Shown in pieces: positions 1 to 42,624 of a DNA stretch of 64,000 nucleotides. The notes below the pieces were generated by a model, which was not told where the DNA came from, ran no database searches, and was given only the letters and a program-made list of their open reading frames with translations. The DNA is from Antedon mediterranea. Taxonomy: Eukaryota > Animalia > Echinodermata. The stretch's first letter is position 1. Each line of letters starts with the position of its first letter. Position numbers and translations under genes: made by a program. The stretch is from NCBI RefSeq assembly GCF_964355755.1, contig NC_092672.1, positions 17,125,237 through 17,189,236 on the forward strand, given 5' to 3'.

Positions 1-1
1 C

Positions 2-1240
2 GGCAAAACGGAACATCCAAGAAAACAACACGCTCTCGTTAAACTCATACGAGGCAGATTACTGAACGATTCGGAAATGCTGTACAGAATTGCGTTTGTA
101 CGTCTCTCCTCCATCAATCAACTGGTTCAAGATTTGAGACATTATGTAAAACAAGTGTTTCATCATCATCGATTGAACGAGCAATCGGCGTTGGGTGTTC
201 GTCACAGTCATCGACAAATTGCCACTTTCGGAACAACAACGCCACCTCCACCACCATCAATACCACAACAGCAGCTGGAAGAATACGTACACGTTACCGC
301 TTCGTTCATGACGGCACCGTTCTATCGAACTACCGTAGTTCGGAATCTGGCGTACACAGTATCTCCAGCAGACGAGGAGAACGCGACGATGCGTCTTCAT
401 CGATACAATGCCATCGTTGGAACGTTCGTAAGATTGCAAAACTCTACAACGAAGCGTACAGACGAATCGGTATGCCTGACGAGAATGAACGAAGATTTGT
501 TGATACTAAGCGGTGGTGGAGCTAAAGAATTTGAAACGTTCGATTTGGATAGTGGTGCGTGGAGCGTGGAACAGTCATTGGATACGGGCGTCGGCGGTGA
601 ATTGTACACGTCGCACGCAACGTGTCAACACGGCCGCGACCTATGCGCATGGTACGTGGATCAAGCGGGTGATCATCTTCTGGTGATGTTGCGACGTACC
701 CGAACAACGTGGAACGTCCTACTCAGACATCCAATTTCCATGGACGAAAACGAAAAGCAAAAGAATGTGAAACGTACCAGTGTGCATTCGTTCTTTGACG
801 CAAACACGATTGTAGCGTTCCACGGCAACACCGTCATCACTGTACACGTACCGTCGGGAAGGTTCGTGAAAACAACGGCACCATTGCATCCTACGCCCGG
901 TGAATGGATAGGCGAGGTGAAACACGAAAACACTGTTCAACGCATCGGCTGTAACGGCATTGTAGACACTTTTGTTTTCCAACAGTCTGTTGCTGCTGCT
1001 GCTGCTTCTTCTGCTGCTGTCGACGAATTTCGAATACAGATTGTCAACAGAAAAATAAAACTCGAGCACGGTACTATTGTTGCGTGCGCACCGCTTCTCT
1101 TTCCCGATGGTACAGTGCGACCGACAGTGCTGCATGCATCCGTTTTGAATTCCACAAAGAAACAACACAGATTCTCTCTCTTTCGACGATCAAGAAGAAG
1201 AAGTAGTAGTAGTAGTAGTAGTAGTAAGCTGAAAAGTTGA
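2..1240 (+). CDS. Kelch/beta-propeller-like protein, 5' partial
   Basis: Frame is open from position 2, upstream of the ATG at 77. Kelch-like segment LLILSGGG..FETFDLDSGAWS; beta-rich C-terminal half. Confidence 0.5.
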   Translation, partial: GKTEHPRKQHALVKLIRGRLLNDSEMLYRIAFVRLSSINQLVQDLRHYVKQVFHHHRLNEQSALGVRHSHRQIATFGTTTPPPPPSIPQQQLEEYVHVTASFMTAPFYRTTVVRNLAYTVSPADEENATMRLHRYNAIVGTFVRLQNSTTKRTDESVCLTRMNEDLLILSGGGAKEFETFDLDSGAWSVEQSLDTGVGGELYTSHATCQHGRDLCAWYVDQAGDHLLVMLRRTRTTWNVLLRHPISMDENEKQKNVKRTSVHSFFDANTIVAFHGNTVITVHVPSGRFVKTTAPLHPTPGEWIGEVKHENTVQRIGCNGIVDTFVFQQSVAAAAASSAAVDEFRIQIVNRKIKLEHGTIVACAPLLFPDGTVRPTVLHASVLNSTKKQHRFSLFRRSRRRSSSSSSSSKLKS

Positions 1241-2710
1241 CGTGAAATCATGTTCAGAAACGTCGAGCATTTCGGCGAGCATACGCCGTCCACAGCCTGA
1301 TCGAAAGTAGGGCAGAAGGGGCATCATCATTTCAATGTCCTCAAACGCTCTCTTTGTCCACGGTTTCAGCGGTACGCCGTATTCTTTCATCCAATCGTCG
1401 AGCAGTGAACTGACGATGAAATCTTGCCACGATGCCGAACAATCGCTGACAATCTGCTGTAACATTTTCGCTGGAAGCGCAGACGTTGTTCCGTGGCGTG
1501 CAACGTTGCCGGCGCCTCCCCCTGACACCGGTATTGATCCCAATAGAACGTTTCTGACGAGAACATCGAGAGAGGCGGATGCCTGTTCGAGTCCCGATTG
1601 AGTTTTTACATCCAATCTGGACGCCAACATACTTCTCTCGTCACCAACATCCTCGGTCGTCATAACCGGTAACAAGTGTCGTTCACGTCTTTTATCGAAA
1701 AGAAAACTCTTTCTCAACTTTTCCTTCTCCTTTCTGCATCTGACTAGATCGCCGATAAGTTTCTCTTTTTCGTCTACTGTGCTCGTTTTGTTAACGTCGT
1801 CCAGTAGAGAAGTTGCCATTGGAACGCCCATGGTTCTGGCTTTGATCAGATTCGCTACGGCTGCTCCGGTAACCAAGTCTTCTGTGTTGTTGTTGTTGTT
1901 GTTGTCATCTTCGCCATCATTCATGCCGTTAGATTTTGATTGAATTTTAGGACCGGTCACAATAATGTTCGTGGCCGAATTGCGCACGGCCGCCAAATGA
2001 TATTCGGTCAAGAGACGTACGTTTTCACAGCTGGCGAGCAGATTTTATAGAGCGCTGTGCATTCTACCGTCAACGCCTGGCCGATGAACGACAACGACAC
2101 GCAAACGAGATTGGCTTTTAATCGATCTAGCATACAGATCACCTTCGTCGTCTCTGAATACTAAACATTCGTCCATGTCGACGGCAACCGGACGACCATC
2201 GACACACGTCGTCACCACAAATCCATAGATCCATATACATCGAATGGTGTCGCGTATGAAACGTTCGATGGATTCCTTGTACGTTTGACAAAAGACGGCA
2301 ACTGTACATGAAGTCGGCGATGGTATTTCGACGGTTGTGCACTGCGTTCTAACGATCGCTTCGGCACTAGCACGCATTCCATGTTCAAACATTGATTTTA
2401 CCGAGATGGATGCACACAGTCTATTGAGTATACACATGCACATTGGCAACTGATCGAACGTTCGACGCAATAGTTTGGCGTGCTCTTCGTCGAGTAGATA
2501 AAACGTTTTGTTCTTAAACTCTTCATTGACGGCCGTCATGCATGTTTTGCGTTTTTCAAACACATGTTGTGCATAGTCTTTTGCGTCGAGGAACATGTTA
2601 GCGTCTCGAGTCTCTGAATCAATGGATGCTCTAATGCTGTCAACTGTCTTTTTGGTCACGTTACTATCGACCGTAGTCAGGGGCATTACTTTCCCGCCCA
2701 GAAGATTCAT
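1190..2710 (-). pseudogene. Single ORF of about 506 codons broken by one in-frame TAA (2045-2047); candidate portal protein
   Basis: ORFs 2045-2737 and 1190-2011 share a frame and read ...MHSAL*NLLASCENVRLLTEYHLAAVRNS. The pattern FIRDTIRCIWIYGFVV..DGRPVAV...RDDEGDLY...HSAL resembles the HK97-type portal wing/stem by eye. Disruption is directly seen; the portal call is inference. Confidence 0.5.
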
Positions 2711-2841
2711 TTTGGCCAGAGGTGATGTGATTTCCACCGATTCGATTCACTTTCAAACAATTGACTACTTTGAGTATTCGTTGCCGATAACCACACATTT
2801 CAGAAGCAGCAGCAGCAGCAGCAGCAGCAGCGGTCACAAAA

Positions 2842-3504
2842 ATGTTGATTGATGCTTGGAAAAGATTTACGGATAGTCTGCCTAGTGGACTTGTCGAAAA
2901 GTCAAAGCCTATCTTGATAACGGACGACTTGTGGGGTGCAACGCTGACGGGTGACGGTCGAACAGAGATCGATCTCACGCAATTGTATGCCGTCACCAAA
3001 TCGGCTGGAATTTCAATTAACGTATCCATGCCAAAAAGTACAAACAAGAAAATCAAATATATTTTATATATCGAACCTTCAAAAGAAGAAGAAGAAGAAG
3101 AAGACGATGACGACGATGAGGAGGAGGAGGAGGAGGAGGAAGAGGAGGCGGTGATGGGTGTGAACGGTACTAAAGAATTAGAGATGGCCGAGTGTACGTA
3201 CGAAACGCCAGAAACTATACATTATAAATTCTATGTTCACACTTCTTTCTGGTTACCAGCCATAATCTCAAAGTTACGTAAAAAGTTTGGCGTCAACTTT
3301 CAAAAGTTGATTATTGCACCAAGATTAACGGAGAAAGGTATTGAGCTGTTTGTTGCAGTAAATGTGCGCGAACGACGAACGTCCTCCACCTCCTCCTCCT
3401 CGTCGTCCTTCTCCTCAGCACGACGAGTACGATCGAAATTGATGATTAAGATGATGATAATTGTGTTTGTGGCTGGAATCGGCTTCTTGAAATATCGAAC
3501 ATAG
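2842..3504 (+). CDS. Tail-anchored membrane protein with an acidic tract, function unknown
   Basis: 220 aa; C-terminal hydrophobic helix MMIIVFVAGIGFL followed by KYRT; poly-E/D and poly-S tracts. Confidence 0.6.
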   Translation: MLIDAWKRFTDSLPSGLVEKSKPILITDDLWGATLTGDGRTEIDLTQLYAVTKSAGISINVSMPKSTNKKIKYILYIEPSKEEEEEEDDDDDEEEEEEEEEEAVMGVNGTKELEMAECTYETPETIHYKFYVHTSFWLPAIISKLRKKFGVNFQKLIIAPRLTEKGIELFVAVNVRERRTSSTSSSSSSFSSARRVRSKLMIKMMIIVFVAGIGFLKYRT

Positions 3505-3590
3505 ACATGTATCGATTTTAAAAGCAAATAGACTCGAGAAGTAGACAAAAGAAAGGAAGTTGAAACTGTTTTTTTTATTTTTTTTTTTTT

Positions 3591-4315: not shown

Positions 4316-5209
4316 ATGTTGACGAATGCATTTCATCCCGTGTATTGCAATCTGGAATTTCTACAAGAACGACAAAGAATGTTTTTCGAATGGAAGAGCG
4401 CTATAGACAAGGCGGCTATAACGGACGAGATTAACGCATCCGCATTACCTATTGTCGAAAAGATTGTGAGAACGTGTGGTAGAGAGACAGTGTTGTTGGT
4501 GGAAATGAATGATGCAACCGTACAAGATATGGTCGAACAACGACAAAAACAATCGATTCTGGCTTACACAAGAACGGCAATGATGGCCGCCACGCAATTT
4601 GAATTGGGTCGACAACGAGAGATATCGCAATTGAACACGTTTCTCTTACAGGCAATAGAAATGTTCAATTTGACATTTTTACCAGATGTAGAACGTGAGT
4701 ACAGAGCATCAACGCCAACCGATAAACATTGGATAATAGATAGCATTCGCAATATCATCGTACAGCTGTTGACCAACACGTACGATCAACCAATGTGGCA
4801 TTCCGTCGGATGCGGATCACCGTTGGCCGTGGCCGTTGCAACGATTCGAAATCGAGTACAGAATACCAGTTGTTGTGGTGGTCTGTCTACGATTCGGGCC
4901 GGGCTCCCAGGGCACGCTACGTACGCGCTTCGAAGAATTATGGAGAGCAGAGGCGCCGCGTGCAAAATACCATCCGTTCGACTTACCTGCCTAACGTCCG
5001 ACGTCGTTAACACACCGGCAACCAATCCAATGCCGGACACGTCCGACGGAGTTGGATCGACGCCAATCAACAGACCCGATGAGAAGCCAGATCTTGTGGT
5101 GGATCTTCTTTCGTCTGAAAACAGTTTGGTTAGCAATTTACCGGAAAAAAGTCGCTCGGCGAGTGAAGACGGTGAACAGACGGGAATGCCCATACACTCT
5201 AGTTCATAG
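4316..5209 (+). CDS. Viral protein in terminase intron 2, overlapping exon 2 in antisense; positional analogue of alloherpesvirus ORF70
   Basis: 297 aa from ATG 4316 (the upstream extension in the ORF track is a microsatellite). Position between terminase exons 2 and 3 on the opposite strand. Confidence 0.6.
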   Translation: MLTNAFHPVYCNLEFLQERQRMFFEWKSAIDKAAITDEINASALPIVEKIVRTCGRETVLLVEMNDATVQDMVEQRQKQSILAYTRTAMMAATQFELGRQREISQLNTFLLQAIEMFNLTFLPDVEREYRASTPTDKHWIIDSIRNIIVQLLTNTYDQPMWHSVGCGSPLAVAVATIRNRVQNTSCCGGLSTIRAGLPGHATYALRRIMESRGAACKIPSVRLTCLTSDVVNTPATNPMPDTSDGVGSTPINRPDEKPDLVVDLLSSENSLVSNLPEKSRSASEDGEQTGMPIHSSS

Positions 5210-5553
5210 CTTCCGGTGGCTATGAGGTTCATCATCTGCTGAACGACATTACCGTCGTTTCCATCAATGTGTTCCGGTACCAAATGTCGCCTGTGAGCGC
5301 ACACTGTTCGCGTTCCTTTCTCGAAGCACGCATCGCACAGGTACGACTGAGTAATGTATTTAACCAGTGCACGTCCATCGTGTTTAATATTCACAAACTC
5401 TTGCGACCAGTGATCACTCGAAGTCATCGACGATGTTAAAAGAACCGACACGTTCTTAGGTTGAAAGATTGGCAGAGTTGATAGCATAGCCGTTTGCTTT
5501 ATCCACGGATACTCGTCCATCCATCCCATATCACAACCGGTTCCTCTTGAAGC
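4987..5553 (-). CDS. TRM3: Terminase exon 2 (Walker B, coupling motif, zinc site, first nuclease Asp)
   Basis: Acceptor tttgttttcag|GCT gives ASRGTGCDMGWMDE (Walker B); LLTSS; CDAC..CAH; LLIGVDP; donor CAG|gtaagt at 4986. Confidence 0.9.
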
Positions 5554-5571: not shown

Positions 5572-6468
5572 ATGACAACAGCTGCTCTGAACGCGTATCT
5601 ACAAGCAAATCGTTTCGACATATATCACGTGGACGAACTTCACGAATGTGTACCGAATAGATGTACGTTCGTGCAACCCATGCAAGACGGTGAGAATTTC
5701 GTGTGCATGTCGTCGCTACGCACGCACACCTGTTCATTGTCGGCAGACTGCGTCATGGAAAATTTAGATCACAACACTCGAAGATGCGCATTGACTGGTA
5801 AAGAATTCTATACAGACGAATATGAACCGATTGTCGTTGGACTCGATACGCCGCTATACGACAACATGCAAGAGGTTAGAAAGATGACAACGACGCGAAA
5901 TAAACACGAAAAAATGTTTCGTTTCGGCACAACCGTACGTCAGGTTCTGGAACGATTGTACGATCGAAAGAAACGATGCAAGTACAACAACGTAAATTTC
6001 TTTGAACACAAGGCCTGTGAAATGATTTTGGAGAACATGGGCAAACAGAACATCGTGTCCGTAATCAGATACACCTTTCTAAAATACGTATCAGCAAACA
6101 GATTACCGGATACAGCGCTTCCAGAGGAAAACATGCTGGACGACGTGGTAGACTTTATTTTCGACGTTATGTCTGTGTTTATGTACTACTCGACGTTACA
6201 ATATTCCAAGAAAGACTTTCTACTCAGCAACGGTCACGAAACGGTCGTGTACTTACTAAAGAGCACGTTGAATGGTATTCGTTCGGCGGAAAGCGTCATT
6301 CTAAAACCACGCTTTCCTCAACTGAAACCCATGCCAGGTGATCGGTTGATGTTTCCGATATTTCAGGTGTCGACCTCTCAACTGACAGCGTGCTCGAGGT
6401 TGTTACAGAGCATGGCGAATGAAAAGATTTGTCGTTATCATTTGGCAAAATTAAATCGAGAATCTTAG
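5572..6468 (+). CDS. UL92/ORF31/VLTF3-like late transcription factor candidate
   Basis: N-terminal HEC..C..FVC....THTC....DC........CALTG resembles the UL92-family C..C..HVC....C....VCALTG motif; helical C-terminus. Confidence 0.6.
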   Translation: MTTAALNAYLQANRFDIYHVDELHECVPNRCTFVQPMQDGENFVCMSSLRTHTCSLSADCVMENLDHNTRRCALTGKEFYTDEYEPIVVGLDTPLYDNMQEVRKMTTTRNKHEKMFRFGTTVRQVLERLYDRKKRCKYNNVNFFEHKACEMILENMGKQNIVSVIRYTFLKYVSANRLPDTALPEENMLDDVVDFIFDVMSVFMYYSTLQYSKKDFLLSNGHETVVYLLKSTLNGIRSAESVILKPRFPQLKPMPGDRLMFPIFQVSTSQLTACSRLLQSMANEKICRYHLAKLNRES

Positions 6469-6736: not shown

Positions 6737-9700
6737 ATGGTAAATTCGAAGACAATCATCATCATCATCATGTATACATCATCACAGACCGAAACGTTGA
6801 TGGACACGACGGCTGTTAGACAGAGGCCGACAAAGAGAAAAGGACGGGACGATAATAAAGAGGTTGGCAAACAGTCGAAAAAAATGACGCCGTATCTTGG
6901 ACGAGTTCTCGACGAACTCGCAGACCCGACGCTCACAACAACGACGCTCATGAGAATGGTATCGACTGCTTACAGATCCGGCTACCCTCCAGATGGATCC
7001 ATGCTGGGTCTAAAAGCGCAGCTACTTCGAATGGACGGCTTTTCAAAACAGTTTTCAAACGCGTTCGTTTCTGGTCGCATAGTTGTTGTCGACGCAAAGA
7101 ATCTTAAAAGCTTGTACGAAAGTCTGTGTGAAATAATCAAAATGATTGAAATCATCACAGAAATCAACAAACATGCTGACATGAAAGAGAGAACGCGTAA
7201 ATTGTGCGACAGTTTGTTTCTCGGCGGTAGCTTTCTAAATTCGAAACAAGTTCGGGTCTCAATCGTCATCAAAGACGGTAATCTAATACAACAAAAGATA
7301 CACTTTGCAAAACATCTCAAGACAATGACTGCCGTTCCAGGTATACATTCACAGTCGCCTGTAATAGGCGGTGGCGGCGCAGGAAAAGAGAAATCGTTTC
7401 TACAGCTGGGAAAGTTTCAGGCCGGCAATAGACTGACAATGAAAGATTTTTTTCTGAAACACTACACATCTACGCAAGGTAACAATTCCAGCGATCGTGA
7501 TGCTCTCTTCAACGAAACCGGATTAAGTAAAGATGATTTCGAGAGATTGTTGAAAGCGTGTACGCACATTCAAAACGTGGAAATCGGAACCACGTTTCGA
7601 TTGATGAAATACGTGTGCGCGCTGTTCGACAAAAGACCGAATCTGTACATGATTTTCGCTTGCCTCGTACTACATCGCATAGTTCATCACATCGGCGATG
7701 CTACACTGCTCGCCAGAGCCGACATGTGGAATCTCGTGTTGGGACAGAGTGAAGAGATCACAAACAGTTGGAACTTTGAAAGAATCGACGCGGAAATCAC
7801 GGCAGCTGAGAGTAAATGGAACGCGGCACATGCTCCGTGGTTGACCGTTGACTCGGCGGAACGTCCCACCGTCGAATGGATCAGAAAGTTGGCAAAAAAG
7901 ATACAAGAGGACTTTGCGCCATACGAAAGAAATGCTTTGGACATTGACTTTGACCATTTGTTTGGTGCGCTCGTGTCGTACATTAAAAAACACGAATTTC
8001 TCAAGATTCGTCTAAGAGATCATGCACTCGTTACTGGAACGATCGACGAACTTAAACCGTTTCAATGTGAACGACCTCCGTTCGGAACGCCCACTGCACA
8101 AGATGACATGCCATGGAGAGACTGTTGCCATTACGAGGCGAACGTATGTGCTATTCTACTCAACGCTCTTTGCAATATACCGGTTAGATCTCCTGAATCA
8201 ACGCGCAAGATTTCACTCGACACGGCCACCGAAGGCATGGCAATGGTCGAACAAAGTCGGTTCGAAATAACGCAACTCAGTTACCAACATCTGCTAAGTT
8301 TGGAGGCTAAAGCGCGTGAACGTGCCGCCAACATCACTACTACCGATTCTGAATCTCGTATGCCGGTGATGAACACAGAATCTGCTGATAATATGTCGGT
8401 GGTGCAGCAGCAGGTGAACACCGAAACTGTTGACGACGACGACGAGGCGCGTACTACAAACGCATCAGATACGCTTTCTGTTCTCGAACCTCTGGTCATC
8501 ATGGAAGGTATGCCGGCAAATACCACCCAAGACACACTACTTTCTGTGCTTGAATCTGGTACGACGCCGGCGGTGATGAACACCGAAACTGCTGACGCGC
8601 TTACTACTCACACCGATGATGCAATTTCTGTGCTCGAATCTATTGACATAGCAAGCATGCCGGCAAACACCACCCAAGACACACTTTCTGTGCTCGAATC
8701 GGGTACGACGCCGGCGGTGATGAACACCGAAACGCGTACACACACCGATGATACAATTTCTGTGCTCGAATCTATTGCCATAGCAAGCATGCCGGTGAAC
8801 ACCGCAATTGTACACGAAGAAGAAGAAGAAGAAGAAGAAGAAGAAGAAAAAGAAGGTGACGGTGATGATGATTTACCTAGCATCGGTCAACTGCTCGCTC
8901 CTTACGTGAACACGGCCAACAGCATCTTACCTTCAACAAACGACGATTTGCCCATCTTGGACGAAGACACCGTTCAAAGATTGCGTGAAATCTCGGACGA
9001 TGTGAACGCTCACAATAGTACAATGCACGTAAAACTCTACGATATTGAAGATTGGATATCATCTCAGCCCGATTCTAATGCCGAATCCCAATCGCAGATT
9101 GAAGTCATGCAATGGACAAAGGCAAAAGCCGAAGAAGAACGACGGACGGCTTTGAACACGCTCGAGACTCAACGAGTAGAACACGAAGAGTTCAAGAAGA
9201 CCATGGCCACCAGGAATGCAGAGTCGACGAGAGAAAATGAAAAAAAGACGCGAGTGAGCGACGCAAAAATTAAAGAGTTGGAAACGAAACTGGACAAGAC
9301 CGAAGGCGAACTGCGAAACAGTAAACGTTTGGTGGACGAAATGAAGCAACAACTTCACGACACCGAAATGCAAAATGTCGACGAGTCAGACACTCTAAAA
9401 GCCTTGCTTAACAAAAAGACGGACGAAGCACGTGCACATGAATTGATTTTGAAGCGCAAGCAATCCGAATTGATATCGTCAAAAGAACACGTTGACGAGC
9501 AGACGAGTCGTCGCATCGAAGCGCTCACAAACGAAGTTGGTGAATTGCGCGTGCTGAACAGAAGATTGGACACGGCCAACACGCTTTCGGAGACAACGTA
9601 CAGGCAGCGAATTCAACAGTTGGAAACTGATTTGCAAACGTACGAAGAAAAGAGCAGATTGTATCAGTCGAGCGTACAAAAAAATGAACAGTTGATGAGC

Positions 9701-11913: not shown

Positions 11914-12506
11914 ATGTCGTTTGATTTATGGAAAAGTTTAGAGTCACGCGTTGAACGTAGATGGATAGAATGGTCTCATCATCATCATCATCATCATCAC
12001 GACGACGACGACGAAGAAGAAGAAGAAGACAACGCTTACTTGAAAGAATTGTTGAAGGAATTCAAAGGAAATTTGGAGAGTATATGTACCAAAAAAGGCG
12101 ATGAACAAGATGTTCTCTATTACGCACGATGCATTGCGCTCATCGAACGTCTCTTGTTCGACACAACCACGATAACGTCCGAGTGTTGTACAATGGCCGA
12201 CATGGACAGTATATTGAAACGCAATGTTCTCTTTGCCTGGACCAATGTGCACTCTTTCAAAATTCTCGAAAGATTATCAACAATTTGGAGATTTGTGACT
12301 GTAATGGGAACCGTACCGGCAATGCCGATCGGATGCTGTCCCATTGTCGGCTACAAATGTTTTTGGTGTAGAATTAAAGATGAAAACCTTACAGATGAGT
12401 GTCATCATCTTGTCACTACCGTATTCAGCGAAACAACAGAACAAACAGCAAAAAAAGAAGAGACATCACTCGTTGTATTTCCACTTCCAGCATCATCATC
12501 ACCGCC

Positions 12507-12559
<53 letters not shown>

Positions 12560-13401
12560 TATCAACATCAAATTATTACGATGAGTTTGGTTTTGCCAAA
12601 CGCATCGATAAACGAGTCAAGAATGCCGTTGAAAAACTTAGAATTGAAATCGAGAAAGAAATTCGATATGTAGAATCGTGCGTTAGCTATACGTTGTTGC
12701 CAAAAACAATTAGTCTCGAGTGTACGGCATCGATTGCAAAACTGTTGTGTTTTGCCGAACGCCGTCGGTGCATGGCGTCCAAGCAGTACGCGTGTTTCGA
12801 GCATTGTAATCTTGATGTTTGGAGTAGAAACCTGCTCGAGTGTATGTTGGCGAATCCGGACAGACACGATGAACGCAGAGCGGCAACGTGTACATTTTTT
12901 CGTCTCGTTGTCGATCCAAGTACGGTGGTCGATCCGGCAATCATTGGACACGAAACGGCGTTCAGGAAATGGATGGAGGCGTGTGACGTGGACGTGGAAA
13001 GAGTCTGTGACTACGTGAATGGATTGAAAAAAATGACACCGACAACAGAAATAAATAAAAATGATCAAGTTACAAGCATGTACAAATGTTTATTAATTTG
13101 GCACATGTTCTCGTCCATGCCCGTATCGGGAGGTGGTCCGTTAACGATCCATCGATGCGATCTTGACGGAATGCCAAGCGCAGACGGACTTTGTTTTCTT
13201 TACGATGACAGACGTTTTCTTGTTAAACGCGCTGATCGTGTACTCAATTTCACCTATGAACGTGCTGTAGAGTCATGCGTGGCCTGGATACGGTACGGTA
13301 CGCTATCGATGAATTCACCCACTGTGAGGCGTGTACTGTTCCATACTGGCTTCGATGACGATCGACATGATATCCCCAAACATGATGGCCAGACGCGATG
13401 A
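11914..13401 (+). CDS. Hypothetical Cys-rich viral protein, 495 aa
   Basis: Long intact ORF with the same codon style as its neighbours; in-frame poly-H/D/E/P/S tracts. Confidence 0.65.
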
Positions 13402-25317: not shown

Positions 25318-25421
25318 AACGTGTGTGTGTGTGTGTGTGTGCGCGCGTCGTCGTCGTCGTCGTCGTCAGAAGTCCTTAAATACGGCCGATTTTGTTTTTA
25401 TTCGCAACATCAGTGTTCATC

Positions 25422-31900: not shown

Positions 31901-32990
31901 TATTTTTAAACTGCAAATCAGAAGCATCAGCATCTGATTCTGTAAAGACACAAATTATGAGTATTGCTGAAAAGCAACAAGAAATCAAAGACATGGCATG
32001 TTAAGTACGAATAGTATTACACATACATATACTGCATTCTGAATGCATAATTAATTATTCAAAAGTAGTTTACACAGATTATGTATTTTTTTTAGGAAAC
32101 AAAATTGAACAAAGGTTTGAAATAGGGCACTGGGCCAATTGTTTGTGCAATGGAGGAAGTTCTCCAAACAAAACAAGGTTCCTAGTCAAGCCTATCATGG
32201 GAAGGCCTTTGTAGGCAATCATGTACACAAGTGTTGCCAGGTGATTATAAAAATAAACAATACACCATCTACTTAAGATAGTATACAGTTTAAATTTAAT
32301 GACAATACTATTATTAAAAAACTAAGTGTTGTATGTTGCAATGTTTGAATATTTACCCAATTGACAATATTGTTCACAGGTTGATATTATTCACCAGCTA
32401 ACATCTGCATCAAACCAGGTTCTAGAGGAACAAAGCTCAGATATCCCAATTGGATTTCTTGAAAAATTGCAATCACAATTGATTTATACACCTATCTTCC
32501 ACCAATTTTCAGACATACACAAGGCAATCAACCATACCAATGCAATGACTGAGAATGAAATTGATATTGTTGGTAAGAAAAAAAAAAAAAAATCTGAATT
32601 GAGTTTCTATCACTCAGCTGCTTATTAAAGAATTAATTAAATTTATATATTAATTTACTTACAGCTTCAAATATATCAGACTTCATGTCCAACTGCAGAA
32701 AATTGGAGATCAACATATCTCCAAAATTGCACATGCTCGAATTTCATGTTGTGGAATTTTTAAAGTGATGGCATGTTGGAATCAGCTTGTTAAATGAGCA
32801 GGTGGGTGAACTTATTCACTGGTCATTTAACCAAAAAAAAAAAAGAAGTCTGTATGGTGTAAAGTCAGTTCTGGCAAAAACAATGTCAGTGATGAAGAAT
32901 CACTTAATCTTCACACAACCTGAAGTACAAGCAAAAATAAAACATGCTGTGAAAAGGAAGCACAGTATGCATTTTAAATACCATCAGTAA
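28902..32990 (+). pseudogene. Chapaev-like transposase with RAG1-type N-terminal zinc domain and RING finger; multi-exon, with stops and frameshifts
   Basis: MDFHSESLLNICRICG..DKNVHPSYVCHTC..WRQH..CTAC; RING FQCSICKHIL..CSHHFC; core GGDKGGGS, FFFGD, VPSLHISLG, YHGKAFVGNHVHK, SPKLHMLEFHV, NEQVGELIH. Confidence 0.85.
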
Positions 32991-33224
32991 ACCTTTGATG
33001 ATTTTGTAGAAATAATAGTATTATCAACATATTTGTTTTTGTTTGCAGATGCAGAACAGTAGATGGTTGAAGTGCTGCTATGTCAACAAACTGTTGCAAT
33101 ATTGGAAATATCTGTATAAACAAAATTTAGTTAGGTGTGCTTGCATACATTTATGCAGAGCAGTAGATGATTGAAGTGCTGCTATGTCAACTAACTGTAG
33201 ACAACATCCTACATTTCTTTTTTC

Positions 33225-34065
33225 TTCACTTAATTAGTGTTTAATATAAATATTCAAACAAATGTTAGTTTATATACATACCATTTAAACAGTATATGAA
33301 TATTGATTGCAGCTGATCCATGTGTTCTGAAAAAAAATATTATATGTTATTTGTTAAAATGTCAAGACATGTTTGGTTCAGTAAATATTAATTTAACTGC
33401 AGCATTGTCAACTGAAGTATTAATTTAAATAGAGGGACTATGCTTACAAAACAAAGGTAACTAAAGTAAAAAGTACATATTTTTTCCTCACTTACTTAAA
33501 AAAAAACTGTTTAATACTATAAGAATTAATACAAATGGTTATAGGTTAAATAATATACATACCATTTAAACAGTATCTGTTATATTACTGAATTCATTCC
33601 TGTTATTGTGGATGTATAGTAGGAGAACTGTCATTTGATATTCTTATACATTCTGTGCCAAAACCATGGCATCCTTTGTAATACACCTGAATAGTTCTAT
33701 GCAAATTACCCTTTTCATTTAACTTCAATGCCCATCACTTTTGACTGTGACAATATTGATTGGAGCACATCCATGTGTTCTGAAAAAAAAATATTATATG
33801 TTATTTGTTTAAATGCCAAGACATGTTTGGATCAGTAAATATTAATTTAACTGCAGTGTTGTCAACTCAAGTATTTATTTAAATAGAGGGACTAGGCCTA
33901 TGCCTACAAACATTTTGACAAAGCTGACTAAAGTAAAAAGTACATATTTTTTCCTCATTACCCTTTAAAAAAAACTGTTTAATACTATAAATATTAAAAC
34001 AAACGGTTTTAGGTTAAATAATATACATACCATTTAAACAGTATCTTTTATATTACTGAATTCAT
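33225..34065. repeat. Local direct duplication inside the transposon
   Basis: The block starting atccatgtgttctgaaaaaaaatattatatgttatttg (about 33317-33595) recurs at about 33770-34065. Confidence 0.8.
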
Positions 34066-35158
34066 TAATTAATGGGTGGATATACTAGCCTAGTAGGCCT
34101 ACTAACTACTACTACTACTACTACTAGGCCTAGGCTAGCTAGTATACTGGACATCATCGCTGATTTAATCATTATTATTACCCAGTCCACCCCATCCAGA
34201 TATCCATCCTACCTAGGCTAGCCTATGTTAAGTTTTAAAATTTTACATTAATATTATCACCTAAACTAAGCCTAGGCTAATGTATTTTTTTTTAAATCAA
34301 AAATAATCATTATCTTTATATACAAGCCAAGCCAAGTCGCGTCAACCTGGTAAGTGGACCTGACTACCCACGTCGTGGGGGTAGCCTAGGCCTACTAGAT
34401 GGGGCGATCTTGGCCATGCTGTATACAATTCAAATACGGTTCACGTCAAGCTGAAACCTTATATTAACAATTCTCGTAACAATTGCCTACGAAATAAAAT
34501 AAATCTCAGTTCCTAAAGTGACTAACAACTAATTATATATAAATATCCAAATTTAACCATATTTTTACATTGAATAATTACTAATTTTAAGCATATTTAC
34601 ACTCTAAATTTCAACTACTCACCAGGCTTCGAAGAAACACGCTTTTTTTCTCGCCATCCCATAGTAAGATAAAATAACCGCTCATTTAACATTTTCTCAT
34701 GAATATTCATATTTTCGAGTCAAATTTTATGTCATTATCTCAAATATGTTTTATTTTCGTTTCAGTTTTTATTTTTAATGTTGTGATTGGTATGGACGCA
34801 CCATCTACGCATGTGTGCCACTGTTAAAAAAGTGTTGTTCCAAATAAATATTATTATTATTATTATAGTGCGCCCTCTCTGGTTAGGTTATGGAAATATT
34901 AAGATTAAAACTATAGAGGGGGTATGACTTTTTGTCAATAACGAAACCACCGTAGAAACATACAATGTATTTCAAAATTATAACTTTTCTATATCAATGT
35001 AAACACATTACCAGCAACAACACAGTGGATTATACAAAACATAACTCACTAAGTCCATAGGCATACTACATGCAACACTTTATATATTGACTGTATATGT
35101 ACAGGTATTCCAAAAGCAGTAAAAATAAAATACATTTTGGGGGACAGGCCTACCTGGC

Positions 35159-35988
35159 TGCGATTTTGTTTTTCGTACATAAGTTGGGGACCCCTCATGA
35201 AACGTCACAAAATAAACATGAATAATTCATCAGTTAATAAAAATGTTCTTGTTCCGTTTGCACCCGAAGCGTATAGCAACAAGAAGTGATTACACAAGTG
35301 CGCGCGCGGTACGATTCTAGGCCTATCTACGCTGTGGTTGCGGCGTGCAATTTCATAAAAGAATAACGGCGTTTTGTGTGGATTGTCAAAATAATCAGCC
35401 TTTAGTTTATGGTGTTTTTAATATAATTTATTACTAAAGAATTACGTGTTAAAAAATGATAGTTTCTATTAATACTACATGTATTAGGCCTAATGTTAGT
35501 CTCTAAACCCACGGTCTATTCAAGTAGTAGCTGTGTGTGTGTGTGTGTGTGTGTTAGGTATGACACAGTCCGAGTAATACTAATATAAGTCAGCAAAATT
35601 AAACAATAAACATTACACAAAAATACATTTTTTATTCTCGTGGGTCTAATCTTTCCCATCTCATGTGTTCATATACGCGCATTTTTCTTTGAGTACATAT
35701 TGTTTGATAATAAAATAGCAGAATTACGATTAGCCTTGACACATTATGCATGCCAGTGGTGTGTGTGTGAAGAAGAGGGCGCGAAGGCAATCACGTGAAT
35801 TGACCTAGAATCCCAGGCCGCGTAATTTTTTCTACTGTAGAAAGAATCGTATCGCTTTAGTTTAATCACTTCTTGTTGCTATACGCTTGGGTGCACACGG
35901 AAAAACAAATTTAACTGATGAATTATTCATGTTTATTTTGTGACGTTTCATGAGGGGTCCCCAAATTATGTACGAAAAAAAAAATCGC
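35159..35988. mobile_element. MITE / non-autonomous DNA transposon with ~130-bp TIRs
   Basis: 35160-35292 is the inverted copy of 35863-35988; flanked by the direct repeat TACCTGGC (35151-35158 and 35989-35996). Confidence 0.85.
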
Positions 35989-36110: not shown

Positions 36111-36656
36111 TTACATCATCCAAATGTCTCGTGAGTTTTGATTGTAAAACTCCCGGTGATAATCAGACATTGATAACCTATGTTGAGCAGCCGAAAACGT
36201 ACCGTACAATATGGACATTGCATTGGTCGTCGAGAGCACAAACACCGTAAAATCGTAAAACTGTACAATTACGCCTTTGATGTATTGCAACCGAATTCTT
36301 TGCAGATACTCGTCCAATTCCTCAATGAAATACGTAGGCCTACGTCGACCAGTGTATGCGAATTCTATATTCGCTCCCTGGAGTAGATATGCGATCATCA
36401 TTTTCAATATCGGTTTTCCTAACAAGTCCGTGTGTGCTATCGTTGGATGAAAGTCCATACTTTTCGAAATCCGGACATCCGCTTCCCCCGGAATGTACCA
36501 TTGATGGTCATAATAAATTTCGTGAGTGGTATGGTCTGTGTAAACGTCTCGATGTACATCGTAGCCTTTGATCAACAGAATTCGTTTAAATCTCTCTTCA
36601 AAGTATTCTGTTCTTTGAATTCTCAGCTTTTCAGTTACTGATCTTCGCAGCATCAT
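36111..36656 (-). CDS. Hypothetical protein, 181 aa
   Basis: Intact ORF from an ATG, with the CpG-rich composition of the viral genes. Confidence 0.55.
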   Translation of the reverse strand: MMLRRSVTEKLRIQRTEYFEERFKRILLIKGYDVHRDVYTDHTTHEIYYDHQWYIPGEADVRISKSMDFHPTIAHTDLLGKPILKMMIAYLLQGANIEFAYTGRRRPTYFIEELDEYLQRIRLQYIKGVIVQFYDFTVFVLSTTNAMSILYGTFSAAQHRLSMSDYHREFYNQNSRDIWMM

Positions 36657-36900
36657 TTCCCGTTTTGTTGTGCTTTTTTTTCTGTTAAAATTTCTCTTTT
36701 TATATCTACCATTTCCCTCGCCCCCCCCCCCCCCCCCATAATAGCCTAATGTGTGTGTGAGTGTGAGTGTCCAAAGACGCGCGGCGACGTTTAGTTTGTA
36801 TCCTATTTTACAAAAGAGATATGTGTCGTGTCACCACAAAAGGAGCTTTGGGTTGAAATTATTTTTTTTTTTTTAAATTATTATTATAATATTAATCTCC

Positions 36901-37327
36901 ATTCTTTAAGCTTTCTAAAAAAAAATAATGTAACTTGCTTTATAATTTATTTCAAGGCAATTAAGATATGACCCTATTTCAACCAAGAACTTCCGAATTC
37001 AATAGATTACTTCCGAATTCAATAGATTATCAACAATTAGAAAACAGCCTTTTAAGTTCAGTGGACAATTACATTGGTTTTATTCAATAACCACAACACA
37101 TTCGCCTTGGATACCATTAGTTATTATTACTGAATCTACATGAAATTTTTAACACTTAAACAATGAATACGAGTATAGATTACACTTTAATTTCTTTCAA
37201 TTTTATTATCATCTTCATATATAAAATACAACAATTAAAAATTACATAATTATGTTGATTAATGGATTATTTTGAGCACACACAATCTGTTAACATAACT
37301 CACTTCTACTCTAGATCATGATTAGGC
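36901..37327 (-). repeat. Right arm of the dispersed inverted repeat
   Basis: Reverse complement of 23017-23372, with a small extra insertion near 37060-37110. Confidence 0.9.
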
Positions 37328-38725
37328 CTATACAAATTCTTACACATTCTTCTTCGTTTTCAATAACTATCCTCGCCGTCAGAATCTTCGTCTATCCCCA
37401 TCATCCAGGCTTTAGCATTAGCAAGAAGGCTAGCATTTAAAGCGTCAGCTATGACTTTTTCTGATCGTTCATTATCAGAATTTCTGACATTTCTATTAAT
37501 TATATCAAACTATTAATTTGAATGATGCAAAAGAATTATAGTATAGTTTATTAAAAGATTGTAAATTATAACACTAAAGTAGGACAATAATGTAGTAGCA
37601 CACTGTAAACCTCGTGCGAACAGCTTACCAAGGTAGTAAACAATACGTCTACGCACGTTCACAAGTGATTGACCAATCAGAGGACGCGATTAGTCCCTTT
37701 TGTTTGGCTGTATTTAAGGCCGAAGCCTTTATAAAAGTGATTGTGATTGGACTATGATTGCATATTTAAATGTTTATTCATGATATTCTGAAAGATGACG
37801 TTACAAGCTTTAAAACCATACCAGTTGTGACAATGTTTGGAAAGGCGGGAACATTCGATTGAAAAATAAGGTAGATGATTTTTGGCCGGCCGTTTACGGC
37901 TGAAATAGTCAGAATTCCACACAAAACCTTACAATATTGTCTATAAAAAAACGTCAAAATGTATGTATTTTGGAACAAAATTAAGTTTTAAGGACAAGTA
38001 AACTATAATAGTTGAATATGTCGAATATGTAAGAAAAAAAAAATTATTTTAAATTGACTATTCCAACATTCAAAGCTAATTATAGCAATATTATAGCTTT
38101 TGCGACACAAGGCCGGCGGCTCTTTTAGTTGTGACGCGACCCATATAGACGCGCGCGCGGGGGGGGGGGGGGAGATGTGGAAAACGCATTAGTAATGCTT
38201 AACATCAGTTTCTATAAGAGCGAGATGAGTGAGAGAGAGAGATAGAGAGAGAGAAAAACAAAAACAAAAAAATGTGCTGTATCAAATTTATTTTCTTTTA
38301 TTAATCCATAAGAAAGTGACAACATTAAAATAAAAGTGAATTACATACAAAAAGTTTTGCATTTATTTATTTGGAATTACACCTTTAGATCTTTAGCACA
38401 CTTAGCACAAAGGTGCATCCTTCACAATATAAAATATAACAATTAACAGAAAAGTAAAAAAAGGCAAAAGCAACTATCCTACCCCTCCCCCCCCCCCTCA
38501 ATTTACATCGATACATACAGTAGATCATTACTTTACACAAATGAATACAAAACAAGATATAGTAAAAGTGTACAAAATAAAATCAACTGATAAACACAGC
38601 TTATTACGTAAAAACCCCCAACCTCTCCTCCCCCCCCCCCTTTTTTTTTTCAATTTACTTAATGTAGCAATGTAGATAACATAGTTGCATTGCAGTTAAA
38701 GTTTGGTGCTGTATATATACAATTT

Positions 38726-39241
38726 TTAAATGTCGCATACGCACAAGATTTCTATCGACATCGGCTCATATACTGCCGCGTCTACATTACATCGTTGAAA
38801 GCACTCATCCGATACGGGAATAGTTTCTGGATAACCAAACAGAGCGGGAACGCACCTTCCCACGTTTTCACCTAATGGAAAAAAGCAATGAGAACCAAAC
38901 AGATCGCATCCATCATTGTCCGGTACGAGAAGCCATTGATCATCAGCCGATCGGTTTAGGCTACACGTTTCTAAAGAATATTTCATACCGTCCCATCGAT
39001 CGCATTCATCACAACACGTAACAATATGAGTACCGTCTTCGATGATGTCAATGCACGCATATTTTTCGCTCTCTCTAATGCATGCGTCGTGATATAGAAA
39101 CGGCGATACTCCGTCAACGTACACCGATCCAATTAACAAGTCCGGACGTTCATCGATGCACATTACACAACGATGGTGGTAAAGTAGTAGTAGTAGTATG
39201 AGTAGTAGTAGTAAAATGTGTTTCAACGCCTCTGTATCCAT
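38726..39241 (-). CDS. Secreted or membrane-anchored Cys-rich protein, 171 aa
   Basis: N-terminal Leu-rich hydrophobic stretch followed by many Cys. Confidence 0.6.
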   Translation of the reverse strand: MDTEALKHILLLLLILLLLLYHHRCVMCIDERPDLLIGSVYVDGVSPFLYHDACIRESEKYACIDIIEDGTHIVTCCDECDRWDGMKYSLETCSLNRSADDQWLLVPDNDGCDLFGSHCFFPLGENVGRCVPALFGYPETIPVSDECFQRCNVDAAVYEPMSIEILCVCDI

Positions 39242-41376
39242 GCGTCACAATTGGTTCTGATGTAAAGCGATACCAACGAAAACAAAGGCCAATGTCTTGT
39301 CTCATTATGTTCTGTAACGGGCATGCAAACGTGATGAAAATGTTTTGAGAATCCACTTCGTATAGACGCTGATATGACGTGTGACGGAGGACGAGGTCCG
39401 GCGTTTTCAAATTTTACGAACCTGTTCAATTTGGTTGGAGCCATAGAATGCCAAGACCTTGTTGCCGGGTTGTAACCGCCAATCATGCGTGGTATTCCGT
39501 CTAATACGTCGTAAATAAAAGGAAACTTTACGGTTGATCTGACTTTTTGCCTGAACCACGGGCCGTGTTTTTCATTACGTTTAAAAACATGTTCATTGTT
39601 GACAACAAAAATGTGTCCACTGTCGTGTATAAGCGACGTGTTTTTGTCCAAGTGTCGAATGTATGATTTGGCAAAATTATCAACGAAACGAGACGGAAGT
39701 ATTCTGTTCGGAATGTCAACGTCGGCCATCAATTGGCTCGAGATTATTGAAAGCTTAGAAACAACCGTTTTAGGCTCAGCTCTAGTGCACATGACGTTGC
39801 CGATAGTGAACAGTTCGATTTCACCGTTTGACTCGTTTCCTTTGCACCATTTACTCGAGTAATAACGATACGTCGTATTGAAAGCAAACCACTCTTTTCG
39901 TATCGTGTCATACACGAATCCATATTTTTCAGTATCGCATCTACTCATGTCGGTTCCTAGAAAGTCTAACATGTCAGTCGGTGCGCCGGTTTCGAATCTA
40001 CCACCAACAAACACTAGCAATCTATCCAGAAAACAAAACATTTGCATTCCACAACGATGCCGGCAAACGACAGGCATTTCGCCAATTTTAGTCCATTCTG
40101 CTATACCGCCCTTGTTCAGGGTTTCTCTGGTGCACTCGTACACTTGAAAATCTGTTTCAAAGACGGCGTACAGTGTGTTCTTGTTACTCGTGCAACTTAA
40201 AACGCCCTTTATTGTTACGTCATGAAACAATGGTCGAATGACAAGTATGGTTGTACCTGTGAACGCATGATTCATGTACACGTCACCGGAAGAAAGAACG
40301 GTAAAAACAGATGCGTTCGGTGTGTCCTGACAGGCAAGTTGACGTTCCGGTGGTCGAGCAGACATTTTCAAGAGCGTCTTGATTCTGTCGGTGGTTCGTA
40401 AATCATCGACGACGACGTTGTTGTTGTGTTCGTTCATTCTATACGGCGAGAATACGGACGAGTCGAGAAGAATGCCCATGCTTGTCGCGTTGATCTTGTT
40501 GTCGGGCAATGATGCAACCCATACGGTCACTAACCGATTCACGTCTGCATTGTAACCGCTTTTGCGAGCGTTTCGACTCAGTAATTTGTCAAAGAAACAT
40601 GGCGGAATCTGAGACATCCACATGGAAATCAAATCTGGTTTCTTAACAAACAAATCGTGAATGAGCGGTGCCCAGAAAATCAACGAATCGGCAATGACAC
40701 TCGATATTGCGTATGCTTTTTCCCGTTGGATTGTCGCGTGAATCAATTGGAGTACAACTGCAGTTCTAATCGGATCAAAAAACATTACTGTCGCTTCTTT
40801 CGAAATTGTTTCAATTGTATCCGTTGAGATTTTTGGGAATACAATGCCTGTGTTTATGAGCATTTGCTTGATTTTATCCAGAGCAATTGTATTGTTCAAG
40901 TACACAGACAGTTTTGTAAACGAAACGATGTTTTCAATTGTAGACGGTTCATTTCTTTTGGTAAAGTTGTTTACGGCGTTTGCGTCCAACCATTTCGGTA
41001 CTTTATACCAAATGTTGCCGCTTACTTTATCTTTTACAAAATGAAGATTTCTTATCTTATTTTTTGAGTCGTCGTGTTGTACTCTGTACGACGAATCGGT
41101 ATCACGTTCCAAAAACCCGTCGTCGTATACATCACCTGCATGCTGCTGCTGCTCCGGTTGAACTTCAGTCTCCGAATCAATTTCGGGCACGTTATTCGGC
41201 GGCCGTTGAAATATTTCATAATTTAAAGGTGTTACGGTAGCAGATTTTGCTAACGTTGAAGGTCCATCATCATCATCATCTTCATCATCAGATGATATCC
41301 ACACAGTATCAAGTTTTCTTACTTTCTTACTGTCTTCGTGACGTTCATTAGAACCGTGCCTGCGTCTGGACGCCAT
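39223..41376 (-). CDS. Kelch-repeat-like protein with a helical N-terminal region
   Basis: 717 aa from ATG 41376; WTKIGEMP, LLVFVGGRF, VYDTIRKEW and MIGGYN..WHSMAP are Kelch-type motifs. Confidence 0.7.
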   Translation of the reverse strand: MASRRRHGSNERHEDSKKVRKLDTVWISSDDEDDDDDGPSTLAKSATVTPLNYEIFQRPPNNVPEIDSETEVQPEQQQHAGDVYDDGFLERDTDSSYRVQHDDSKNKIRNLHFVKDKVSGNIWYKVPKWLDANAVNNFTKRNEPSTIENIVSFTKLSVYLNNTIALDKIKQMLINTGIVFPKISTDTIETISKEATVMFFDPIRTAVVLQLIHATIQREKAYAISSVIADSLIFWAPLIHDLFVKKPDLISMWMSQIPPCFFDKLLSRNARKSGYNADVNRLVTVWVASLPDNKINATSMGILLDSSVFSPYRMNEHNNNVVVDDLRTTDRIKTLLKMSARPPERQLACQDTPNASVFTVLSSGDVYMNHAFTGTTILVIRPLFHDVTIKGVLSCTSNKNTLYAVFETDFQVYECTRETLNKGGIAEWTKIGEMPVVCRHRCGMQMFCFLDRLLVFVGGRFETGAPTDMLDFLGTDMSRCDTEKYGFVYDTIRKEWFAFNTTYRYYSSKWCKGNESNGEIELFTIGNVMCTRAEPKTVVSKLSIISSQLMADVDIPNRILPSRFVDNFAKSYIRHLDKNTSLIHDSGHIFVVNNEHVFKRNEKHGPWFRQKVRSTVKFPFIYDVLDGIPRMIGGYNPATRSWHSMAPTKLNRFVKFENAGPRPPSHVISASIRSGFSKHFHHVCMPVTEHNETRHWPLFSLVSLYIRTNCDAWIQRR

Positions 41377-41429
41377 CGCAATACTACAGCAACACGCACG
41401 CACACACACAATATGATCGCTAATATTAC

Positions 41430-41813
41430 TCACTTCAATAACTGCTTAAGAAATGTGGTTAACGTTTCAGAATATTCCTCCTTGTTTTTACTGGAACTAG
41501 CAAATTCACGTGCAACGTGAAGTGTGACAATAATGCGGCCCTCATTCACGTGGCCGTCTTCAAACATGCCCACGAGCAGATTGTGTAATGACTTGGCGCT
41601 GCGACATTTCACCTTATCAACTTGATTCTTGATTTCAGTTTTCAATTCTGCGTTGCTAAATGTTTCCGGATATTCACGTTCAACTTTTTCCTCGTTTTCC
41701 AAATAATTTTTGGCCAAAACGATCAATTTATCAACATCAAAACCACCGTTTCTCTTTAACATCTTGTTCAACAATATTTCTTTTTTTGAAGTGACTTTCT
41801 CGTTTATACGCAC
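41430..41813 (-). CDS. Viral Bcl-2-like protein (BH1 present, no clear BH2 or TM)
   Basis: MFEDGHVNEGRIIVTLHVA matches BH1 (LF.DG.NWGRIV) with a W-to-E change; upstream EKVEREYPETF is BH3-like. First ATG is at 41762. Confidence 0.65.
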   Translation of the reverse strand: MRINEKVTSKKEILLNKMLKRNGGFDVDKLIVLAKNYLENEEKVEREYPETFSNAELKTEIKNQVDKVKCRSAKSLHNLLVGMFEDGHVNEGRIIVTLHVAREFASSSKNKEEYSETLTTFLKQLLK

Positions 41814-41940
41814 ATCAATTTATAGTACCGGAATGATTCTCTGTCAACAATCCCGTTTGTACGGTTCCGGTCTAGGATTTGCGTTTGTGATGACCGCTAT
41901 GTTATGTAAATGAGCCTGTGCAGCTGGTGTATTATTAATT

Positions 41941-41977
<37 letters not shown>

Positions 41978-42000
41978 ACACACGTTTCATAAGTTTGGTT

Positions 42001-42624
42001 ATGGATTCAGAACAGGGCTTAATTGGAGACCAGGGGTATGCTACGTCTAAAGCCAAAAACTTGTACATTAACCAGGTATCTGATGGTTTTGATGCCAAGT
42101 TGAACAATTTTAAAAGGCATGTTGCCGAGGAGTCATATTCAGCATTGAAACGTGCTCGGTCAGCGCATTTCAACGATGAATTAAAGATAGTGTATGAAAA
42201 CAACGATCAGAGTGAAACGCTCACCGAAGGTATTATGATTCTTGAGAAATGACAAAAATTAAAAAATTTAAAAAAATAAATAAATAAAAAATTTATAATA
42301 GCTTATTTTTTTTAATTTTTTTTTGTGTGTGTTTCAGGTGAAGACTTTGGACCACTCACAGATCTGCGTATTTCCGAGTTGGCAAGAGAGCTGGGCAATG
42401 ATTGGTCAATGATAGCAACATATTTAGGAATTTCACTCGCTCAACAACAAGATTTACGTCAGGCTCATTACATTTGTAGTCGGGAACGTAATCAAGAAAT
42501 GCTTGTTATATGGCGCAAGAGAGATTCATGCTGCCAAAAATCAGACAAACTACAATCATTAATGAATGCATTGGAAAAAAGTGGAAGAATCGACTTAAAA
42601 AACAAAATCAGTCTATGGCAATGA
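42001..42624 (+). CDS. Death-domain protein, two exons (42001-42229, 42338-42624), 171 aa
   Basis: G|gtatta and tttcag|GT join in frame; LTDLRISELARELGNDWSMIATYLGIS...EMLVIWR...LMNALEKSGRIDL is a canonical death domain; aataaa downstream. Confidence 0.85.

Follow-up and report, generated by a model that had tools for sequence, protein, structure and literature searches.

The 64,000-nucleotide stretch of DNA analysed here (the window) carries in its left part a compact block of virus-like genes, organised around a herpes-type terminase gene that is split into three minus-strand exons. These exons are bounded by canonical GT/AG sites, all in phase 0, and join into a frame of 598 amino acids (aa; 232 + 189 + 177) that holds no internal stop, the 9.9-kb intron 1 and the 0.86-kb intron 2 between them harbouring further genes. 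Packed and mostly intron-free open reading frames (ORFs) occupy both strands at 1–19.5 kb, 23.9–28.0 kb and 38.7–41.8 kb of the ORF listing, with a coding density of 93% over positions 1–19481 and 90% over 23852–27978. A preliminary description of positions 1 to 42,624 had pointed to both a spliced herpes-type terminase and dense viral-style ORFs, and the exon structure, the exon-3 profile matches given below and these densities bear it out on both counts; the few inactivating mutations that it reported were likewise recovered, as an in-frame stop in the likely portal gene and two decayed pieces resembling death-effector domains (DED) by eye. The genes that carry the argument are:

15484..16179, minus strand: terminase exon 1 (232 aa), the N-terminal ATPase part with Walker A; Pfam DNA_pack_N E 0.012, below cut-off
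4987..5553, minus strand: terminase exon 2 (189 aa), with what we take to be Walker B, the coupling motif and the first nuclease Asp; nine homologues at 46–81% identity
3591..4124, minus strand: terminase exon 3 (177 aa), with the nuclease Glu and Asp; Pfam DNA_pack_C E 0.0016, below cut-off
4316..5209, plus strand: gene nested in terminase intron 2 (297 aa), overlapping exon 2 by 223 nucleotides
5572..6468, plus strand: UL92-like protein rich in Cys and His, encoded by the first intron-1 gene; Pfam Herpes_UL92 E 4.8e-4, below cut-off
6737..11803, plus strand: 1688-aa coiled-coil protein in intron 1, without family match; syntenic 1636-aa ORF in metagenomic locus L002, E 1.5e-5 in the coiled-coil stretch
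11914..13401, plus strand: 495-aa protein in intron 1; syntenic 503-aa ORF in L002, E 0.002
1190..2710, minus strand: likely capsid portal gene in two pieces, with an in-frame stop near 2045; true start uncertain

Structurally, the herpesvirus affinity of the terminase emerges from profile searches against the PDB, in which a three-sequence exon-3 profile returned herpes simplex virus UL15 and human cytomegalovirus UL89 as the top five of 14 matches, and a 14-sequence profile again placed UL15/UL89 in the top five positions (best E 1.7e-9), with phage terminases not among the matches listed. PDB searches with single terminase exons, exon 1 included, gave no match, and the DNA_pack_C cut-off was passed by relatives (three of the 32 proteins scanned with Pfam), one of them an exon-2 homologue. 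By Pfam and profile–PDB comparison, then, the window contains a herpes-type terminase ATPase/nuclease subunit, a membership feature of the Herpesvirales. Exon 1, with a non-canonical residue following GK in its Walker A, was read from the window's copy only.

The layout of this region recurs in environmental DNA. A metagenome scan yielded three loci (L001, L002 and L003) from 36 stretches, and nine of 344 candidates proved to be exon-2 homologues whose two ends coincide with the window's exon borders; the acceptor and donor of exon 2 and the acceptor of exon 3 sit at the same codons in L001 and L002 as in the window. Ten of 24 window ORF pieces match the 25 ORFs of L001 and L002 at E<0.01, mostly in L002 order, and the 20-kb L002 keeps the succession of 495-aa gene, 1688-aa gene, UL92-like gene, exon 2, nested gene, exon 3 and portal, at a terminase identity to the syntenic relatives of about 50%. 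Extra genes lie in between in L002 (an OTU-like protease, an immunoglobulin-type membrane protein and a kinase), and the 325-aa and 528-aa genes of the window's second ORF block are displaced relative to L002 and L001. The protease (L002 8226–8978, Peptidase_C65 E 8.5e-4) and the protein kinase (17442–19223, E 3.3e-10) have no counterpart there in the window. L001 also holds, at 6427–10025, two paralogous ORFs of 580–605 aa that look BTB/kelch-derived by eye, which had no Pfam match and did not match the window's 717-aa ORF by BLAST. Scans of viral contigs gave none of 13, 25, 50, 15 and 2 candidate stretches, and a scan of genome contigs gave three of 40, including the bacterial loci L004 and L005, whose 54-residue matches at E 1e-4 were rejected as chance.

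Homologues of the nested intron-2 gene sit at the matching position in L001, L002 and L003, with 27–28% identity in the alignment. At 4987–5209, where this gene and exon 2 overlap on opposite strands for 223 nucleotides, third codon positions are aligned with each other; the same overlap is seen in L002 and L003, and not in L001. For the UL92-like gene, the L001 homologue passes the Herpes_UL92 cut-off (E 3.7e-8) and the L002 homologue has no Pfam match; the product is predicted to be a late-transcription factor. Beta- and gammaherpesviruses, we believe, carry a UL92-like gene within the terminase intron and on the opposite strand, as the window does. By size and place only, the 495-aa intron-1 protein is a candidate for the second terminase subunit; its profile found no UL28 match in the PDB, and the matches returned were His-tag artefacts. 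An internal 162-bp repeat (77%) was observed within the 1688-aa gene at 8415–8803.

A portal protein is common to all duplodnaviruses, and the gene at 1190..2710 is a likely one on the strength of the ESM Atlas and of gene position. Both of its pieces match a single 495-aa ORF of L002 (E 7e-27 and 3e-12), for which the ESM Atlas score is 0.95 and the ten best family-bearing matches share one portal family or clan, and four further homologues at 44–47% identity to the L002 protein were found among 7994 candidates. The portal candidate had no Pfam match (herpes UL6 included) and no PDB profile match, and its AlphaFold model (predicted local confidence, pLDDT, 37.8), like one further model (33.6), scored too low for fold comparison.

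Evolutionarily, the window's terminase falls into a small group of its own. Searching 1.84 billion representatives with the exon-3 profile gave 27 matches, five of them at E<=1e-41 (including L001 and L002) and the next at E 3e-17, and a tree of 28 rows, none of them a named reference, groups the window with these five in a starred clade of six rows (97/92). Several of the eight sequences that join next share the exon-3 start. A second group of exon-3 sequences (P0019–P0024 and P0038), several with the same exon start and one (P0024) with a cluster mate on a 1.49-Mb contig, may be another integrated lineage; motif searches of the supplements of PMC12031113 and PMC5601938, as far as these were accessible, gave no label for it.

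Sequencing runs of other organisms contain near-identical copies. Seven of the 13 runs listed contain at least half of the sampled words; they belong to two studies (organism A, the possible source, and organism B), and with organism A's study set aside, organism B contains about half of the words in two samples of one study. Over window positions 1–20000, the span in which run coverage was compared and for which the small-share runs X9 and X11–X13 were left out, bins were covered 30/30 in run X1, 29/30 in X6 (with several overlapping variants) and 27/30 at low depth in X8 (organism C). The same element occurs in organisms A, B and C, mostly at 90–99% identity, X1 and X6 each containing a more distant terminase variant as well; the portal stop near 2045 appears private to the window's copy. 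Variant sites within ORFs lie at third codon positions in 14 of 22 cases in X6 (p 0.0035), 9 of 14 in X1 (p 0.017) and 7 of 11 in X6 only (p 0.039), counts that leave out the stop-codon site, nine distant-variant sites (eight in overlapping genes) and five sites on a DED side contig (three of the five at third positions). Seven of the 12 indels listed, among 48 in all, are multiples of three. Because the copy differences lean to third codon positions, we infer that a working virus has integrated recently and more than once; divergence in such a virus followed by recent insertion fits the data better than neutral decay, in a small and partly overlapping sample.

Around this core lie further ORFs, several of host type:

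2..1240, plus strand: 412-aa ORF, open at the left window end (ORF listing)
13754..14326, plus strand: helical protein of 190 aa whose likeness to Snf7/ESCRT-III is by eye only, with a positional partner in L002
14348..15451, minus strand: 367-aa Cys-rich ORF adjoining exon 1 (ORF listing)
16281..19481, plus strand: laminin-G repeat protein of 1066 aa whose ends are signal-like and hydrophobic; Pfam Laminin_G_2 E 2.5e-33, four stretches
19583..21585: DED cluster of two intact ORFs (19583–19942 and 19939–20307, minus strand) and two decayed DED-like pieces
23852..27978: second ORF block, with a 325-aa membrane protein, a 163-aa ORF, a 528-aa ORF and a 219-aa membrane protein
36111..42624: third block, with a 181-aa ORF, a 171-aa secreted Cys-rich ORF, a 717-aa ORF (kelch-like by eye), a Bcl-2-like ORF and a death-domain exon
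57704..59466: spliced CD225/IFITM-like gene (minus strand) and 218-aa ORF (plus strand), in virus-style DNA

The laminin-G protein is likely a surface protein. Pfam identified both intact DED ORFs (E 2e-13 and 1e-12), the death-domain exon at 42338–42624 (Death, E 2.5e-10), the CD225 exons (E 6e-11 and 3e-7) and, below cut-off, the Bcl-2-like ORF at 41430–41762 (E 1.2e-4); the two decayed DED-like pieces at 20.9–21.6 kb were assigned by eye and had no Pfam match. In the second block the 325-aa protein matches L002 (E 2e-14) and the 528-aa protein L001 (E 3e-5). The L002 partner of the 190-aa ORF was not recovered by BLAST, and neither Pfam nor the PDB supported its Snf7 assignment; the 367-aa ORF had no Pfam or Atlas match. 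Broken virus-style ORF pieces were noted at 58269–58681, upstream of the 218-aa ORF. Over 38 window ORFs, Pfam matches to orthoherpesvirus core families were limited to DNA_pack_N, DNA_pack_C and UL92, all below cut-off; PDB searches with profiles A1, A3, A4, A5 and A9 gave no valid match, and PHROGs (21 proteins) and NCBIfam (18 proteins) gave nothing useful.

Mobile and repetitive elements interrupt or extend this virus-like DNA:

28023..34870, plus strand: decayed, intron-bearing Chapaev/RAG1-like transposon, the family name being our assumption from its motifs; DUF1280 E 1.3e-7, remains at about 28.9–33.0 kb
35160..35988, strand unassigned: miniature inverted-repeat transposable element (MITE), presumably Mutator-like, its inverted arms matching at 90% and flanked by a 9-bp target-site duplication
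48523..51920, plus strand: decayed transposon, which we take to be of Academ type, inserted in a tandem array; TAG...CTA ends, long inverted arms, 3-bp target-site duplication
20474..20507, minus strand: hammerhead-like core ('Penelope-type motif'), single and weak
42860..56140, plus strand: tandem arrays of a 130–149-bp monomer with 284–292-bp higher order, in inverted relation to 22448–23016

All three transposons lie outside ORFs, and the window's only two CpG-poor segments, at 28.9–33.6 kb (0.25) and 48.5–51.9 kb (0.46), contrast with 1.0–1.44 elsewhere, 1.2–1.4 in the CpG-rich viral DNA and 1.44 in the viral core. The ends of the Chapaev-type element are tentative (a 12-bp inverted match), with no target-site duplication found, and the Academ-type element had no Pfam match. 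The hammerhead-like core also arises in 8 of 100 shuffles (fold z = -1.5), and Rfam over 19.5–43.5 kb gave no match. Of the four kinds of host element named in the preliminary description, the Chapaev-type remains and the MITE stand, the Academ-type element lies outside positions 1..42624, and the Penelope-type motif is weak. Its report of abundant TAGGCCTA is correct in number (21 occurrences against 0.14 expected), though 11 of the 21 come from amplification of a single motif within the tandem-repeat unit. GCGCCCTCT, which we take to resemble a CTCF site, is repeated in non-coding DNA at 21952, 22241 and 34866.

As to extent, the end that had been set at 42,624 was rejected, with no virus–host boundary demonstrable there and virus-like DNA beyond it. 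The DNA right of 42.7 kb resembles the viral core in its CpG richness, has sequence in common with 22448–23016 in inverted orientation and contains further virus-style genes, and by dinucleotide profile the tandem arrays and 56–64 kb are 111–122 from the viral core versus 144–230 from either transposon; the arrays are likely part of the element, and the part right of 42.7 kb as a whole probably belongs to it. A contig of run X1 extends 1,006 bases beyond the window start, and the virus-like DNA apparently continues past the window on either side. A 78% inverted repeat (23017–23380 and 36893–37327) flanks the 23.9–36.8 kb block and could be the mark of an inversion or a small non-autonomous element, and two segmental duplications (55937–57075 = 62862–64000, 99.9%; 59717–60931 = 61846–63064, 95.6%) are either recent tandem duplications or an assembly artefact.

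To our knowledge, the invertebrate herpesviruses on record are malacoherpes-like. Malacoherpesvirus and amphioxus-associated terminases are described as intron-less (PMC2994540), and the window's two introns agree with the preliminary description of a divergent, largely intact element that is not malacoherpes-like. The orthoherpesvirus terminase has two exons and a ~3.5-kb intron (PMC13595911), and the window has neither this form nor the Pfam-detectable core families of the Orthoherpesviridae. Malaco- and Orthoherpesviridae are therefore excluded by terminase layout. Three exons with one ORF in intron 2, the alloherpesvirus arrangement, are present (borders compared by eye), a layout that does not separate allo-like from mirus-like viruses. 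Host transposon insertions and breaks inside viral DNA mark an endogenous element, and we infer integration because two of the transposons carry target-site duplications. Taken together, we posit, with a probability of roughly 0.6, that the window is an inner stretch of a multi-copy herpesvirus genome that integrated recently, probably of an invertebrate, likely outside the three named families and of alloherpes-like build. The portal, the UL92-like gene, the nested intron-2 gene, the alloherpes-like layout, the multi-copy signal and the synteny with L002 go beyond the preliminary description.

Functionally, such a virus would replicate in the nucleus, where host splicing would join the terminase exons in cis across the 9.9-kb and 0.86-kb introns; terminase and portal would load an HK97-type capsid whose genes lie beyond the window, and the UL92-like protein would act in late transcription. 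The DED, Bcl-2-like, death-domain and CD225 genes could blunt apoptosis and innate defence, and the laminin-G protein may work at the cell surface. The working virus likely enters the germ line repeatedly, its copies then gathering host transposons in non-coding parts together with scattered breaks. Genes for the integrating activity likely lie outside the window; as its engine the Chapaev element, decayed, CpG-poor and internal, was rejected, and it would be a decayed passenger.

Several observations weigh against an integrated herpesvirus. No herpes-type major capsid protein, triplex protein, polymerase or helicase was recognised by Pfam in the window or in L001–L003; the portal look-alikes are phage portal families, Pfam giving no herpes UL6 match, and the A1 search for longer proteins returned none of 7991 candidates. 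The join of the window's clade with the eight further sequences is unstarred (93/88) and a place where long branches meet, in a tree without named herpes- or mirusvirus references (20 of the 27 matches were looked up, none usefully named). The codon test draws on 40 of 509 variant rows, with 11 sites shared between the X1 and X6 sets, and contig depth is not equal to copy number. The repeat unit carries host-type TAGGCCTA, and the arrays may be host satellite. Within the 64 kb there is no host junction, no intact transposase and no telomeric repeat (0 tandem TTAGGG or TTAGG), on which last count telomere-type integration signals were rejected.

Among the alternatives, a very divergent member of the Alloherpesviridae, an endogenous virus of the Teratorn kind whose host is a fish, an amphibian or something unexpected, would account for the three exons with matching borders, the single intron-2 gene and the Cys/His gene beside exon 2: salmonid herpesvirus 1 (SalHV-1) has three terminase exons (ORF72/80/82) with one ORF in intron 2 (PMC13030845), and in Teratorn, compared by eye, a single gene on the opposite strand separates exons 2 and 3, and exon 2 has a Cys/His-rich gene as neighbour (PMC5601938 supplement 2). 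Teratorn is also multi-copy with intact genes (PMC5601938), and the next tree group shares the exon-3 start. We nevertheless consider this unlikely, as Teratorn's 277-aa exon-3 protein is by eye very unlike the 177-aa exon here, the window lacks a piggyBac transposase and no named alloherpesvirus sequence was among the matches looked up; the transposon set and TAGGCCTA moreover suggest, on our assumption, an invertebrate. A mirusvirus that infects animals, or a lineage standing between mirusviruses and herpesviruses, has a low probability. Nuclear mirusviruses split their terminase near Walker B and carry MING-1 at a fixed nuclease-intron site, which speaks against a herpesvirus, and they count Snf7 as a core gene (PMC12768974), which recalls the Snf7-like ORF seen here by eye; the short 598-aa terminase and the phage-like portal look-alikes also favour this reading. 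Against this stand the failure of Pfam and the PDB to support Snf7, an alloherpesvirus layout that accounts for the introns equally well, the UL92-like gene, the metazoan-type genes (DED, laminin G, Bcl-2, CD225) and mirusvirus hosts reported to be mainly unicellular (PMC12768974, PMC10827195), although the survey in PMC10827195 excluded animals.

Whether the DNA is chromosomal at all bears on another explanation, a free viral genome, latent or replicating, that was co-assembled with the host and acquired host transposons in the nucleus. The missing host junction, the even X1 depth across 1–20 kb, the purifying-selection signal and the metagenomic origin of L001–L003 would suit it, but decayed, CpG-poor transposons totalling about 11 kb and a portal stop, the latter apparently private to the window's copy, fit a packaged genome poorly, and we see only an outside chance of it. 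Very improbable is a single old insertion that is older than the divergence of organisms A, B and C and that host processes duplicated afterwards; the same element at mostly 90–99% identity in three organisms and the segmental duplications at 56–64 kb agree with it, whereas third-position bias and in-frame indels are not expected of neutral decay, and most ORFs are open.

More tentatively, the integrated herpesvirus could represent a fourth, family-level invertebrate branch that retains an ancestral packaging locus shared with alloherpesviruses and nuclear mirusviruses, has a UL92-type late factor and still integrates into germ lines as a multi-copy mobile element; just as tentatively, that locus would comprise a split terminase, a nuclease-intron gene, a phage-like portal and possibly an ESCRT-III copy. 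If this were so, the intron-2 gene, mirusvirus MING-1 and the Teratorn intron gene would be one ancient family, and sequence comparison can test both whether the nuclease-intron gene is one family across mirusviruses, alloherpesviruses and the viruses described here and whether UL92-type late transcription is ancestral. An alloherpes-type three-exon terminase in this lineage would make the layout older than the fish and amphibian family, the lineage would be a missing taxon for rooting the Herpesvirales against mirusviruses, and both the host range and the ancestry known for herpesviruses would widen. That several organisms hold copies under purifying selection points to a virus, so far unrecognised, that still circulates.

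Comparable elements were found in one report within the literature accessible to us (bioRxiv 10.1101/2025.04.19.649669), which describes starfish and ribbon-worm regions related to the Herpesvirales; like the window, these are herpesvirus-related DNA in invertebrate assemblies outside known clades and may be the same lineage, but in its text they are placed by polymerase only, with no terminase, portal or copy analysis. The Malacoherpesviridae and the amphioxus-associated virus, the latter probably integrated (PMC2994540), are likewise invertebrate herpesviruses, differing from the window in their intron-less terminase. Beta- and gammaherpesviruses share the terminase nuclease similarity (UL89) and differ in having two exons around a ~3.5-kb intron and in other orthoherpesvirus core families, none of which Pfam matched in the window. 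Mirusviricota (Okeanovirales and Styxvirales) have in common with the window the split near Walker B and a gene-bearing intron in the nuclease part, which alloherpesviruses share and which is not diagnostic; they are mostly trans-spliced, intron-rich and of unicellular hosts. Closest in build are the Alloherpesviridae, where Teratorn and SalHV-1 show a three-exon terminase, an intron-2 ORF and several intron-1 genes, and where Teratorn is in addition multi-copy and endogenous, with terminase piece borders at matching places by eye. The window's terminase is much shorter and very divergent, its host is probably no fish, and the fused piggyBac transposase, terminal repeats and target-site duplication of the Teratorn type are absent from the window, the element's ends lying outside it. 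Finally, Teratorn's first terminase piece lies downstream of the other two, whereas the exons in the window stand in collinear cis order.

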